Source: a virus (taxonomy: Duplodnaviria > Heunggongvirae > Uroviricota > Caudoviricetes). From it: a stretch of 26,095 nt of DNA. The notes beneath the pieces were generated by a model that was given only the letters and a program-made list of their open reading frames with translations, was not told the DNA's origin and searched no databases. The translations under genes and the position numbers were made by a program. Each line of letters starts with the position of its first letter. Position 1 is the first letter of the stretch. This document shows, in pieces, positions 3,603 to 18,568 of this stretch. The stretch lies in the IMG/VR virus record IMGVR_UViG_2531839476_000012; one strand, 5' to 3'.

Positions 3603-3965
3603 TTAACGACCTGCTGCGCGGAGTTTTCCGTCAGGTTCACCGGCAAGAGTCAGTAATTGTCCCTGGTCTTCCTGCAGAATAGTCAGGCGACCACCGCGAT
3701 TGACATACATCGGCGTTTCGGTGGTGTCTTCTTCGGAAATTTTCCCGCGGTTAGTTGGGCGAACATATGAGAGTTTGTGTTTGATTTTCACACGGTTCTC
3801 ATCAAACGGTTCGATTTCCAGATTGAGTGAGACCTTCCCTTTGGTTTTCGTGTTCATCACACCGGAAGCGACCTCACTGAGAACTGCGCCGATTTTGGTT
3901 TCAAATACGCCGCCGTCCAGCTCCCCGATAAATGCCTGCACATCAGTACTGCGTTCGCTAGCCAT
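3603..3965 (-). CDS. yfdP: Hypothetical early protein, 120 aa (YfdP-like)
   Basis: Internal ATG at 3965 with a strong GAGGAG Shine-Dalgarno 7 nt upstream; the 175-aa extension in the ORF track lacks an RBS and runs into a structured non-coding region. Confidence 0.7.
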   Translation of the reverse strand: MASERSTDVQAFIGELDGGVFETKIGAVLSEVASGVMNTKTKGKVSLNLEIEPFDENRVKIKHKLSYVRPTNRGKISEEDTTETPMYVNRGGRLTILQEDQGQLLTLAGEPDGKLRAAGR

Positions 3966-4375
3966 TTTGCTGCTCCTCATCATATCGACCCTGCAAGGTC
4001 GGTTGGTTTCTCCACAAAACAGAGAAGAACACCTGCGGTGGCAGCCGCCCGGATGGATTGGGTTATGAGCCCGTCGTCCGGTGATGCTCTTCTCTGTTTT
4101 GCAAAAAAGGACGGTACCAGCCGGAAGCAAGGGTACAAACTGGTACCGCCAGGACTACACACAGCATAAAGTTGTGGTGCCGGGTGCCTCCCGGTGCCTG
4201 GCGAAGGTTGCACACCAGGCGGGTGGGTATCCACAGAAGGTCGACTGTCAGCCTCAACCTTAACCCGCGTGCGCTGAGCCGCATTCACCACAACGCTAAG
4301 GATTCTCTCTGGTTGAAAATACTTAGCTGTTATGTGCCTGCTTTTAGCCACATCAGGCGAGGTGGACCTGGTTAT

Positions 4376-4421
4376 TCCCCAACAACAAGGATTCGGTTAA
4401 TCTGGATATCCCCAACAACAA
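4376..4421 (+). repeat. Two perfect 13-bp direct repeats (TCCCCAACAACAA) spaced 33 bp apart, just upstream of the accessory gene start
   Basis: Copies at 4376-4388 and 4409-4421 read directly from the sequence; candidate regulator-binding sites. Confidence 0.5.
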
Positions 4422-4435
4422 TAAGAGTATTCAAT

Positions 4436-4951
4436 GTGATCGCTGAATTAACGGCAGCAATGACGGCTATTCGTGAAACAGCCCAGATTGCAAAACTAAT
4501 GAACGAGGCAAAAACTCAAGCTGAAGTAAATGCGGCTATTGGTGAGCTGAACTCAAAGCTTGCGTCTATTCAGCGCGAATGCGTGTCTCTCGTTGAACTG
4601 GTGGGCTCTTATCAAGAAATAAATGCTTCTCTCAAAGCTAAAATTGCAGAATTCGAAAACTTTGAGGCTCAGACGGAAGGCTATATCCTTAACCAACTTG
4701 AGTCGGGTACTTTTGTATACTCGAAGGAGGTAATCGTGAACGGTGGCAGCATAACCATGCATCTTTGCCCAAAATGTTTTGGACAAAAGATAGTATCGAT
4801 ACTTCAACCATTCCCGGTTAGCGAAGATGAGCTTTTTCATAAAAGCAGGTGCCTCCACTGTGAAAATAAGTTTCTGATGAATAAAAATCCGGATTACGTA
4901 TCGCCTCCATCCATTGAGGAGTTGTCCAGAAAACTTAACGGCAATCTGTAG
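4436..4951 (+). CDS. Hypothetical accessory protein: N-terminal coiled-coil plus C-terminal CxxC...CxxC zinc-ribbon-like motif (about 165-171 aa)
   Basis: Open frame ending at TAG 4949-4951. Start is GTG 4436 (AAGAG about 9 nt upstream) or ATG 4460. Heptad-like helical N-terminus (AQIAKLMNEAKTQAEVNAAIGELNSKLASIQRE...), then CPKCFGQ...CLHCENKF. Followed by a rho-independent terminator. Opposite in orientation to the flanking cI and early-left genes. Confidence 0.5.
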   Translation: MIAELTAAMTAIRETAQIAKLMNEAKTQAEVNAAIGELNSKLASIQRECVSLVELVGSYQEINASLKAKIAEFENFEAQTEGYILNQLESGTFVYSKEVIVNGGSITMHLCPKCFGQKIVSILQPFPVSEDELFHKSRCLHCENKFLMNKNPDYVSPPSIEELSRKLNGNL

Positions 4952-4990
4952 ATTACTACTGTTGTGGATATCCAGATTGTTAAAGAGCTA

Positions 4991-5014
4991 AGCGTCCTGT
5001 AGGGCGCTTTTTTG
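4991..5014 (+). terminator. Rho-independent terminator for the accessory gene
   Basis: Imperfect GC-rich hairpin AGCGTCC-TGTA-GGGCGCT followed by TTTTTTG. Confidence 0.6.
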
Positions 5015-5099
5015 TTGCTAACGAATCATCCTGGACTTCATATGCCCCAGGCGGCTACTTCGTGGGCGTCCTGCCTGTTCGTTATCTTTGATATAAAAT

Positions 5100-5113
5100 C
5101 TAACTTAACTTAG
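5100..5113. promoter_or_regulatory. Candidate left operator (oL): 14-bp palindrome CTAACTTAACTTAG
   Basis: Same CTAA(C/G)-N4-CTTAG architecture as the two palindromes in the cI-cro intergenic region; lies just downstream of the cI stop. Confidence 0.45.
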
Positions 5114-5178
5114 TTATCATGACAAGAGAAAACACCAAACTTTTCTTGGTTCGGTGCCTTAGTTAGAGAAGAGAGGTC

Positions 5179-7047: not shown

Positions 7048-7978
7048 ATTAACCGGCTATGTATGGGATGGTTGCGCTGCATCAGGCATGAAATTATCCA
7101 GCGTGGCAATTATGGCCCGCCTGGCTGATTTCAGTAATGACGAAGGTGTGTGCTGGCCATCAATTGAAACCATTGCCCGCCAGATTGGCGCGGGGATGAG
7201 TACCGTCAGAACGGCTATCGCACGGCTGGAAGCAGAAGGCTGGTTAACGCGTAGGGCGCGTCGCCAGGGTAACCGCAATGCGTCGAATGTTTATCAGCTT
7301 AACGTTGCGAAGCTTCAGGCAGCGGCATTTTCTCAACTGTCAGATTCTGACCCGTCAAAATCTGACGCATCAAAATCTGACCCGTCAAAATTTGATGCGT
7401 CGAAATCTGGCAAAAAAGCGGGTTTTCACCCGTCAGAATCTGGTGGGGATCCGTCAGTAAAATCAAAACATGATCCGTCAGATAAAAAAACTTCTCGTCC
7501 GGACGCTTCGCAACCGGACACGCAGACGGCTGAACAGGATTTTTTAACTCGCCATCCTGATGCGGTTGTATTCAGCCCTAAAAAGCGCCAGTGGGGGACG
7601 CAGGATGATTTGACCTGCGCACAGTGGCTCTGGAAAAAAATCATCGCCCTGTACGAGCATGCCGCCGAATGTGACGGCGAGGTGGTTCGTCCCAAAGAAC
7701 CGAACTGGACAGCCTGGGCAAACGAAATTCGCCTGATGTGTGTGCAGGATGGTCGTACTCATAAACAAATCTGCGAGATGTACAGCCGCGTCAGTCGCGA
7801 TCCGTTCTGGTGCCGTAACGTGCTCAGCCCGTCGAAGCTGCGGGAAAAATGGGATGAGCTTTCCCTGCGCTTATCGCCGTCCGTCAGCACGTACACCGAA
7901 AAACGCGAAGACCCGTACTTCAAAGCCAGTTACGACAACGTGGACTACAGCCAGATCCCGGCAGGATTCAGGGGGTGA
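7037..7978 (+). CDS. Replication initiator (O-like; N-terminal winged-helix DNA-binding domain, SD(P/A)SK repeat linker, C-terminal domain), 313 aa
   Basis: N-terminal HTH region (SVAIMARLADFSNDEGVCWPSIETIARQIGAGMSTVRTAIARLEAEGWL); internal tandem 15-bp iterons encode SDPSKSDASKSDPSKFDASKS; position after the cII-like gene mirrors lambda O with its internal ori. Confidence 0.7.
   Translation: MSTKLTGYVWDGCAASGMKLSSVAIMARLADFSNDEGVCWPSIETIARQIGAGMSTVRTAIARLEAEGWLTRRARRQGNRNASNVYQLNVAKLQAAAFSQLSDSDPSKSDASKSDPSKFDASKSGKKAGFHPSESGGDPSVKSKHDPSDKKTSRPDASQPDTQTAEQDFLTRHPDAVVFSPKKRQWGTQDDLTCAQWLWKKIIALYEHAAECDGEVVRPKEPNWTAWANEIRLMCVQDGRTHKQICEMYSRVSRDPFWCRNVLSPSKLREKWDELSLRLSPSVSTYTEKREDPYFKASYDNVDYSQIPAGFRG
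7346..7490. repeat. Putative replication origin: 15-bp tandem iterons with internal dyad CGTCA-N5-TGACG, followed by an A-rich tract
   Basis: TCTGACCCGTCAAAA / TCTGACGCATCAAAA / TCTGACCCGTCAAAA / TTTGATGCGTCGAAA in tandem (7346-7405), further CCGTCAG-containing copies to about 7480, then GATAAAAAAA (7481-7490). Confidence 0.65.
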
Positions 7979-18391: not shown

Positions 18392-18568
18392 CGCGGGTTT
18401 TCGCTATTTATGAAAATTTTCCGGTTTAAGGCGTTTCCGTTCTTCTTCGTCGTAACTTAATGTTTTTATTTAAAATACCCCCTGAAAAGAAAGGAAACGA
18501 CAGGTGCTGAAAACGAACTTTTGGGCCTTTGTCGTTTCCTTTCTCTGTTTTTGGCCGTGGAATGAACA

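Follow-up and report, generated by a model that had tools for sequence, protein, structure and literature searches.

A conserved Y-shaped hairpin beside a terminator-closed, small-RNA-like module in the early-left leader of lambdoid prophages

What role might be played by two inverted repeats that lie in a gap without any protein feature? The question is raised by the leader of the early-left operon in the 26,095-nt stretch of viral DNA analysed here in its full length (IMG/VR record IMGVR_UViG_2531839476_000012; hereafter the window), which is essentially the lambdoid prophage Escherichia phage PhiR49_1 (100% over the leader). The gap between the start codon of yfdP (3965) and the start of a divergent open reading frame (ORF; 4435) measures 469 bp, in agreement with the roughly 470 bp given in a preliminary description of this DNA, is non-coding and holds both repeats. 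That description left the choice between a nut-like antitermination site, a terminator or processing element of the leftward transcript, and a small RNA. The reading favoured here, with a probability of about 0.6, is that a small-RNA module closed by a terminator is followed, on the leftward early transcript, by a hairpin that would form only upon read-through and would then be processed by RNase III. By comparison of homologous leaders, the hairpin in question, hairpin 2, is a widely conserved and previously undescribed structure with a Y-shaped predicted core. It is this hairpin that appears to be new; the intrinsic terminator, the DicF/STnc100-like small RNA and the proposed arrangement of small RNA, terminator and processing hairpin in a phage operon leader belong to known kinds.

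Two hairpins on the sense strand of the leader

The first repeat (IR1) is a perfect 14-bp one, CAAAACAGAGAAGA at 4015-4028 with its exact complement at 4088-4101, and a dyad of GCGG (4035-4038) and CCGC (4045-4048) lies within its loop, both as previously described. The second (IR2), GGTACCAG at 4113-4120 with CTGGTACC at 4140-4147, had been placed correctly but measured as 8 bp, when the perfect pairing in fact covers 9 bp (4112-4120 with 4140-4148). When the whole window was shuffled 30 times with its dinucleotide composition preserved, perfect inverted repeats with loops of at most 100 nt had a maximum length of 9-12 bp and never reached 13 bp, so that the 14-bp repeat lies beyond chance expectation. 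The window holds two perfect inverted repeats of at least 14 bp with such loops, the other one at 18488-18544.

Both repeats lengthen once G·U pairs are allowed, and such pairs exist on the minus strand only. On that strand, positions 4004-4110 form a continuous 26-bp helix and fold at -51.1 kcal/mol (z = -6.7), versus -46.1 kcal/mol (z = -4.75) for the plus strand. Among 18 homologous leaders, where 84 cells hold a G·U pair, standard pairs make up 95.7% of the alignment cells for the minus strand but 83.5% for the plus strand, and a T-run follows IR2 on the minus strand only. The U-tract, the G·U extension, the G·U pair counts and the match to the STnc100 family described below agree with one another, and the assignment to the minus strand rests on this agreement: both hairpins function as minus-strand RNA, this being the sense strand for the early-left operon that runs from yfdP to int. 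The earlier suggestion that the repeats are RNA structures of the leftward transcript is borne out by the folding and by the G·U pattern; the strand, the link between the two hairpins, their wide conservation and the apex resembling tRNA-fMet had been missing from it. The elements next to yfdP are the following.

3963-3978, minus strand: Shine-Dalgarno sequence GAGGAG (3978-3973) and AUG (3965-3963) of yfdP, from the sequence and the YfdP annotation in RefSeq and PhiR49_1
3986-4001, minus strand: hairpin 3 (CGACCU/GGGUCG), a predicted fold directly 5' of the ribosome-binding site, which covaries among leaders (CGACC/GGUCG; in relatives GGCGG/CCGCC or GGCUG/CAGCC)
4006-4016, minus strand: near-invariant UGUGGAGAAAC, the 3' end of the basal helix of hairpin 2, pairing with the U-tract in the alignment
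4008-4108, minus strand: hairpin 2, which contains IR1 and forms a three-way junction; basal helix of 4108-4083 with 4033-4008, 26 bp here
4035-4048, minus strand: stem B, the GCGG...CCGC dyad of the preliminary description
4049-4081, minus strand: stem A (4081-4077 with 4053-4049), bearing the apical hairpin
4060-4073, minus strand: apex CGGGCUCAUAACCC, a GGG/CCC stem (4072-4070 with 4062-4060) closing the 7-nt loop CUCAUAA (4069-4063)

The conservation of hairpin 2 was assessed on 18 non-redundant leaders from about 14 genera, aligned by sequence with MAFFT and folded with RNAalifold, whose consensus contains the basal helix formed between the U-tract and GGAGA, stem A and stem B. The 95.7% of standardly paired cells given above refers to the 35 pairs counted; in a control in which the 3' partners were slid by 1-3 columns, 43-62% were paired, and none of 500 shuffles reached the observed percentage or the observed covariation score. 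Ten pairs (31 cells) changed on both sides. Five of them belong to the basal helix, where 23 shared pairs are 99% paired and where, for instance, ACAGAG/CUCUGU is replaced by ACACAC/GUGUGU and by ACAUGU/ACAUGU. Compensatory changes also affect three of the five pairs of stem A and two of the three pairs counted in stem B, whose length varies through insertions of 0-25 nt in relatives. Moreover, a second set of about 37 elements, retrieved from viral contigs through the 3' arm alone, displays the same fold. The pairing is thus retained across related prophages, one of the points by which the preliminary description wanted its proposal judged.

The link between the two hairpins lies at the base of hairpin 2. 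GGAGA is invariant in the 18-sequence alignment, GUGGAGUAAU is found in the Providencia and Limnobaculum loci, and the U-tract that follows IR2 pairs with GGAGA in 18 of the 18 sequences. Because this U-tract pairs with the invariant GUGGAGA, the hairpin-2 helix would exist only on transcripts that have read through the terminator. Hairpin 2 itself gave no match in permissive Rfam scans, and no published description of it was found.

A small-RNA-like module, its terminator and their possible processing

Directly upstream of hairpin 2 on the transcript lies a module of about 220 nt that appears to be related to the prophage small RNAs STnc100/PasD and to end in a DicF-like 3' hairpin.

4103-4324, minus strand: STnc100-like structured RNA module, a multi-stem core with the IR2 terminator at its end, from an Rfam RF02076 match and a closing inverted repeat
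4112-4148, minus strand: IR2 terminator stem-loop, similar to the DicF 3' hairpin (fold -20.5 kcal/mol, z = -4.3)
4103-4108, minus strand: U6 tract of the terminator, which also supplies the first strand for the basal helix of hairpin 2, from the sequence; U5-U8 in relatives

The RF02076 match (4324-4101, minus strand) covers the full length of the model (1-206) and scores 40.3 bits, below the gathering score of 47, the E-value being 3.4e-7 for a scan of 800 nt and 1.1e-5 for one of the whole window. It includes the full consensus fold, the core motifs UGGUGAAU and CACCGGGAGGCACCCGGCACCA, a helix that closes the core (GUUGUGGUG/CACCACAAC, 4294-4286 with 4179-4171) and the terminal terminator of the model, which aligns with the GGTACC hairpin and the following UCCUUUUUUGC and corresponds to IR2. 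Sub-threshold matches also occur in SfV, ST64B and e14, relatives scoring 29-39.5 bits. Apart from the score, the window differs from STnc100/PasD in that hairpin 2 is not part of the family and in that the module considered here stands in the early-left leader, whereas those members that have been described come from the late region (downstream of stx2, or near Q and lysis genes). The likeness to DicF concerns the IR2 hairpin and the preceding GUAGUC(U/C)UGGCGGUA; since the DicF model (RF00039) scores 15.7 bits in the window, 28.5 in e14 and 28.4 in locus L018, far under its gathering score of 48, the region is DicF-like rather than a member of the family. At gathering scores no Rfam family was reached anywhere in the window, and permissive matches to ftsZ-DE, hairpin-ribozyme and snoRNA models were dismissed as noise. 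The earlier small-RNA proposal therefore holds in so far as IR2 closes a small-RNA-like module, which is probably best described as a near-member, both scores being sub-threshold.

The core of this module has a curious counterpart in two Phytobacter prophages (L022, 2222-2300; L027, 1186-1264), where a tRNA gene stands in its place between the same GUUGUGG...CCGCAAC flanks (tRNA-Ile with anticodon AAU according to ARAGORN; 52.8 bits with the Rfam tRNA model). The core position therefore behaves as an exchangeable cassette, and the STnc100-like core may itself be tRNA-like.

IR2 is, by its anatomy, an intrinsic terminator. Its stem is perfect over 9 bp, extends to 11 bp with one G·U pair (GGCGGUACCAG/CUGGUACCGUC) and to up to 13 bp in the predicted fold, and it is followed on the minus strand by C and U6. 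A GC-rich hairpin followed by U5-U8 occupies this position in 22 of 22 related leaders, with at least six different stem sequences (GGCGGUACCAG, GUCGGCGUC, GCGGCGUC, GCGGCACC, GGUGGC or GGCGGG). This is the signature of a terminator, as structure and position are kept while the sequence changes, and termination at this point is what such an anatomy predicts. Two other terminator assignments were rejected: one on the plus strand, where neither hairpin is followed by a T-run, and one that would make hairpin 2 a second minus-strand terminator, as its helix runs on to GGAGA and then into A-rich sequence. In ST64B and in L010, L011, L020, L026, L029, L030, L032, L033 and L034, though not in the window, the terminator loop is enlarged to at least 40 nt. 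Within it lie a start codon, a sequence resembling a Shine-Dalgarno site and a conserved GAAGAUAAUGUUCUG, as in AGGAGGAUGAAGAUAGUGUUCUGA, which could represent a leader peptide or a conserved RNA motif inside the terminator. In the Providencia leaders (L032 and L034), upstream of the yfdP homolog, a CsrA-like ORF (MLILTRR..GE...) is located ahead of the DicF-like terminator, preceded by GUGGAGUAAU, the motif that follows hairpin 2.

On this anatomy, the following course of events can be proposed. In a lysogen, or during unmodified transcription, polymerase would stop at IR2 and release an STnc100-like/DicF-like RNA, leaving yfdP-yfdT-int silent. Read-through, probably aided by an upstream boxA and a conserved pL-proximal RNA, would lead to the transcription of IR1, whose 3' arm, ending in GUGGAGA, would pair back over the U-tract to yield a helix of 24-26 bp with a Y-shaped core. 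Cutting of this helix by RNase III would separate the upstream small RNA from the mRNA, with a 3' end near that produced by termination. The processed yfdP message would then begin near hairpin 3 and the ribosome-binding site, and its stability and translation would be set in this way. The double-stranded RNA that RNase III accommodates measures about 22 bp (PMC6212723), and the helix, mostly uninterrupted, has 26 bp in the window and 23 conserved pairs; it is because the helix has the length of an RNase III substrate that a cleavage site is proposed. Of the terminator-or-processing role suggested in the preliminary description, the first half thus fits IR2, and IR1 has the anatomy of a processing hairpin, for which cleavage is a prediction.

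Arrangements of this type have precedents. In the lambda N leader and in the metY-nusA-infB leader, RNase III cuts a hairpin located between an upstream RNA element (nutL in lambda; the tRNA-fMet gene metY with terminators in the other) and the first ORF, and the cut changes the fate of the mRNA. The leader described here likewise has a long hairpin between an upstream RNA element and the first ORF, but it bears no sequence relation to either of them, its cleavage is postulated by analogy, and it has a conserved three-way junction and apex in addition.

A further parallel is the dicBF operon of the Qin prophage, in which DicF is made by termination together with RNase III and RNase E processing (bioRxiv 10.1101/2023.04.14.536235). 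The Qin dicF-dicB spacer opens with a long helix directly after the DicF terminator and is listed as an RNase III-dependent site; the dataset that lists dicF-dicB has no entry in e14, e14 being silent under standard growth conditions. Both systems hold a small-RNA module in an operon leaving the prophage immunity region, and in both a GGCGG...CCGCC hairpin with a U-tract is followed by a long helix and then by the ribosome-binding site of the next gene. They differ in that the 5' pairing part of DicF is not conserved in the window, in that the mapped Qin RNase III cut producing a 190-nt species lies upstream of DicF, and in that the Qin helix after DicF encloses an STnc100-like core and not a Y-shaped hairpin 2. 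In that spacer (L038, 2554-2727) the core (GUGGUGAAUGCGGCUGAGCGCACGCGG...CACCUGGAGGCACCAGGCAC) is closed by a perfect 13-bp helix; as the core follows dicF there, the order of the two modules is the reverse of that in the window.

Several observations weigh against the proposed scheme. RNase III needs no more than a helix, which leaves the strong conservation of GAGCAUCACC, GGCUCAUAACCCAAUC and GUGGAGA unexplained; as the junction and the apex are the most conserved parts of hairpin 2, this structure probably does something more. Some relatives do without it, so that it must be dispensable: in L020 the terminator leads straight into the ribosome-binding site, while both hairpin 2 and the DicF-like hairpin are missing from L012. 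The sub-threshold scores of the STnc100 and DicF matches belong here too. Finally, the pL promoter discussed below is predicted from a consensus scan, transcription might also start at a weak internal promoter near 4330-4358, and a leader transcript from pL would run antisense through the divergent 171-aa ORF (orf171).

Transcription of the leader and other readings of hairpin 2

Two elements at the upstream end of the leader bear on its transcription.

4977-4988, minus strand: rrn-type boxA GCUCUUUAACAA on the pL transcript, from the sequence
5097-5125, minus strand: predicted pL promoter TTGTCA-17-TAGATT, overlapping a CTAAS-N4-STTAG operator-like site, from a consensus scan

Three CTAAS-N4-STTAG sites are present, and it is because the two that do not overlap the 5125-5097 promoter lie between cI and cro that this promoter is taken as pL. 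A promoter scan of the minus strand from 4325 to 5090 gave no sigma-70-like promoter; a candidate internal promoter at the conserved CAGGCACATAAC, directly 5' of the STnc100-like start, lacks key -10 bases and failed the scan. The leader transcript most likely starts at pL (about 5090), then, and would run for some 1.1 kb to the yfdP start. Within this leader of about 1.1 kb the first gene is preceded by one or more intrinsic terminators (by two or more in ST64B), which implies, by inference, regulated read-through. No N-like gene, sought as a small arginine-rich ORF, was found between pL and yfdP. N is also absent from the ST64B/LLS group, for which put-like RNA antitermination has been suggested (PMC12315714).

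Some conserved RNA features accompany this upstream part. The boxA directly follows a hairpin, AAGCGCCCUACAGGACGCUU (4977-5009, minus strand), which read on the plus strand resembles a terminator of the divergent ORF. About 10-15 nt past the predicted pL start lies a sequence of about 60 nt (5015-5080, minus strand; ACAGGCAGGACGCCCACGAAGUAGCCGCC...GGAUGAUUCG) that hardly varies among ST64B, SfV, e14 and three other genera and contains one covarying stem. It is a candidate RNA antiterminator, being similar in position and size to putL of HK022 and carried by N-less phages. Further downstream, the motif CCACC-N3-GCCUGAUGUGG-N-UAAAAG-N-CAGGCAC (4334-4365, minus strand) forms two interleaved inverted repeats with a pseudoknot-like appearance and is found again directly 5' of the first leader module in e14 and in seven or more further loci; in L028 its GCCUG/CAGGC is replaced by the compensatory GCCGG/CCGGC. 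The motif could function as RNA or, alternatively, as a promoter/operator.

The apex of hairpin 2 deserves separate mention. Its 14 nt are identical, 14 of 14, to positions 28-41 in the anticodon arm of the E. coli initiator tRNA-fMet, a query that was checked against 5426 E. coli genomes (100% identity, median of four copies), and one match to this 14-nt string in the window compares with 0.012 expected. The predicted fold presents the apex as three G-C pairs closing a 7-nt loop with CAU. Three G-C pairs and such a loop are what characterises the anticodon arm of the initiator. Of the 18 yfdP-anchored leaders, 16 retain CAU, which is also found, among the approximately 37 hairpin-2 sequences found via the 3' arm, in all but two related variants (L160 and L183) and persists where neighbouring loop bases vary (UUCAUAA, CCCAUAA, CUCAUUC). 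The e14 hairpin 2 has a degenerate apex (UUAAUAA). A tRNA gene remnant was considered and rejected, given that ARAGORN found no tRNA gene in the window and the similarity to tRNA-fMet ends at the 14-nt anticodon arm; the Rfam tRNA model gave no match here at E <=10. The apex motif occurs only once in the window, extra GUGGAGAAAC matches being near chance. That the apex loop pairs with the ribosome-binding site of yfdP was likewise considered and rejected, the match being 4-5 nt only and, by inspection, not conserved across genera.

Could the apex, then, be what hairpin 2 is for? It might work as a mimic of the initiator-tRNA anticodon stem-loop, serving as a translational operator or decoy through the 30S P site and IF3 or through a tRNA-fMet-specific enzyme of the VapC/MvpT type, with the long helix as a mere scaffold that presents it. 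There is some background for this in that the thrS operator mimics the anticodon arm of tRNA-Thr and in that the VapC/MvpT toxins of Shigella and Salmonella cut tRNA-fMet in its anticodon loop, between positions 38 and 39. Phages of both these genera are among the carriers of hairpin 2, the 14-nt identity sits in the right structural frame of three G-C pairs and a 7-nt loop, within a 5' leader and about 100 nt from the start codon, and CAU is retained though positions 32 and 33 vary, also in the set retrieved without reference to the apex. Even so, a working mimic seems unlikely: just three stem pairs are shared, 27/43 and 28/42 being unpaired, unlike in the tRNA; in several lineages positions 37-38 read UC or UA; the G-C pairs number only two in four leaders; CAU is lost in e14, L033 and L160; the Providencia hairpin 2 has no apex at all; and neither ARAGORN nor the Rfam model detects anything tRNA-like. 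Like hairpin 2, the thrS operator is a leader hairpin that copies a tRNA anticodon stem-loop, but it adjoins the ribosome-binding site and is bound by the protein whose gene it regulates, whereas here the copy is of tRNA-fMet and stands about 100 nt upstream. No such mimic was found in a literature search, and if the apex is functional, no mRNA leader of a bacterium or phage is known to us in which a mimic of the initiator tRNA has been described before. The strong conservation of the loop relative to the stems has also been considered as a sign that hairpin 2 is excised, or independently stable, as a small RNA of about 95 nt acting in trans, pairing with host or phage targets through the conserved single-stranded CUCAUAACCCAAUCC. 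Its neighbour modules do belong with the small-RNA families STnc100/PasD and DicF, and RNase III cuts in the basal helix would free exactly the hairpin-2 piece; it has, however, neither a terminator of its own nor a U-tail for Hfq, and no complementary site was found in the window, which makes a trans-acting RNA decidedly unlikely.

Of the roles named in the preliminary description, antitermination fares worst. Hairpin 2 would have to be a cis-acting element, nut-like for an N-type protein or put-like, binding RNA polymerase and taking it past terminators located farther along the left operon, and its position in the left-operon leader of N-less phages, in a group where put-like control has been suggested (PMC12315714), its two stem-loops at a junction with conserved sequence and a boxA-resembling UGCUCUU(U) in its 3' arm all speak for such a role. 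Yet this stretch is the only boxA-like one in 4015-4147 and is paired in all 18 sequences, a genuine boxA (4988-4977) adjoins pL some 900 nt upstream together with a better-placed conserved two-stem RNA, hairpin 2 lies downstream of the leader terminators and about 1 kb from pL, and there is neither an N-like ORF nor a constant first gene among relatives. HK022 put, itself a protein-independent two-stem-loop RNA in the early leaders of an N-less lambdoid phage, is placed upstream of the terminators it overrides, whereas hairpin 2 comes after the terminator; no sequence similarity to putL exists, and in position the pL-proximal RNA at 5080-5015 is the better analogue. A relation to HK022 put was rejected, as the HK022 genome had no motif match and putL has nothing but CAGGAUGA in common with hairpin 2 or the pL leader. 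The nut-like reading in particular is not sustained, and antitermination by hairpin 2 in any form is distinctly improbable. A function of the repeats as DNA, be it the operator of a dimeric protein, a cruciform or a recombination site, would suit the perfect 14-bp repeat of the window phage. This is very improbable, however, given that pairing is maintained via G·U, which is a mismatch in DNA, and on a single strand, that the arm sequences vary freely across genera with pairing retained, and that a spacing of 59 bp is atypical for operators. It is hardly credible, lastly, that the region codes for protein and that the repeats are incidental. Long stop-free stretches exist, RefSeq and GenBank carry annotations, and the candidates would be YmfH as annotated in e14 of K-12, a 123-aa minus-strand ORF at 3980-4351, or small plus-strand ORFs annotated in PhiR49_1 and mEp460. 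However, the RefSeq pipeline PGAP marks the ORF over the leader as frameshifted, and close relatives (89-98% identical) are separated by 1-nt indels (four between the window and e14, two between the window and SfV), and the open frame shifts from phage to phage. The spacings between conserved anchors (26, 27, 29, 30, 40, 43, 50, 51 or 52 nt) show that insertions are not multiples of three, stops occur in each of the six frames in some homologs, and the substitutions follow compensatory pairing. In K-12, the e14 ymfH (L005, 4002-4313) overlies the STnc100-like module, the terminator and hairpin 2; as no reading frame is conserved, it is probably not a protein-coding gene.

Distribution of the leader and what it may mean for lambdoid phages

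Part or all of the leader is present in 3096 of 5426 complete E. coli genomes (about 57%), as well as in SfV, SfII, SfIV, ST64B, mEp460, cdtI and Stx2c-converting phages and, as YmfH, in e14 of K-12; beyond E. coli, it occurs in prophages of a wide range of other Enterobacterales, and hairpin 2 recurs there ahead of the first gene of the early-left operon. As mEp460 and the Stx2c phages share only 3966-4151, that is, the yfdP start, hairpin 2 and the terminator, these three travel as a module. A search for YfdP homologs, with one genome per species, returned 31 loci, from Mangrovibacter, Buttiauxella, Enterobacter, Atlantibacter, Leclercia, Superficieibacter, Phytobacter, Kosakonia, Scandinavium, Pseudocitrobacter, Providencia, Limnobaculum and others. 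In most of them the order is a GC-rich hairpin with U5-8, a long hairpin, GUGGAG(A/U)AA, a short hairpin and the ribosome-binding site. In the viral contigs, the first gene after hairpin 2 varies by prophage (YfdP, RdgC-like, YfdR-like or Xis); hairpin 2 is a general leader module that is not tied to yfdP.

In the window, the minus-strand genes downstream of the leader are yfdP (AUG at 3965), yfdQ, yfdR, an EaE-like gene, yfdT and int (1-1164). On the other side of yfdP come the divergent 171-aa ORF on the plus strand (4435-4951), minus-strand cI, cro, O, Q, and the lysis and head genes. The 171-aa ORF encodes a coiled coil with a zinc-ribbon-like part and is flanked by inverted copies of AATCTGGATATCC(C/A)CAACA at 4399-4421 and 4958-4980, with a 13-nt direct repeat, TTGTTGTTGGGGA, at 4376-4388 and 4409-4421; these repeats may mark a cassette boundary or an invertible segment. 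Two perfect 11-bp inverted repeats inside the O (replication) gene (7341-7442) probably belong to a replication origin with iterons. The repeat at 18488-18544, the longest short-range one in the window (15 bp perfect, AGAAAGGAAACGACA at 18488-18502 and TGTCGTTTCCTTTCT at 18530-18544, 27-nt loop), sits inside the terminase large-subunit gene.

The view of the leader as a set of RNA modules corrects its annotation as hypothetical proteins, ymfH of K-12 included. Were the apex a true mimic, it would couple the left operon, from yfdP through xis and int, to the state of the initiator tRNA, or act as a decoy for a host toxin that cleaves this tRNA. The control of the left operon in N-less lambdoid phages is still treated as open in the literature (PMC12315714), and the leader would offer a handle on it, excision and integration genes included. 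At the same time, it may serve as a model of the way in which long operon transcripts release prophage small RNAs of the DicF and STnc100 kinds.

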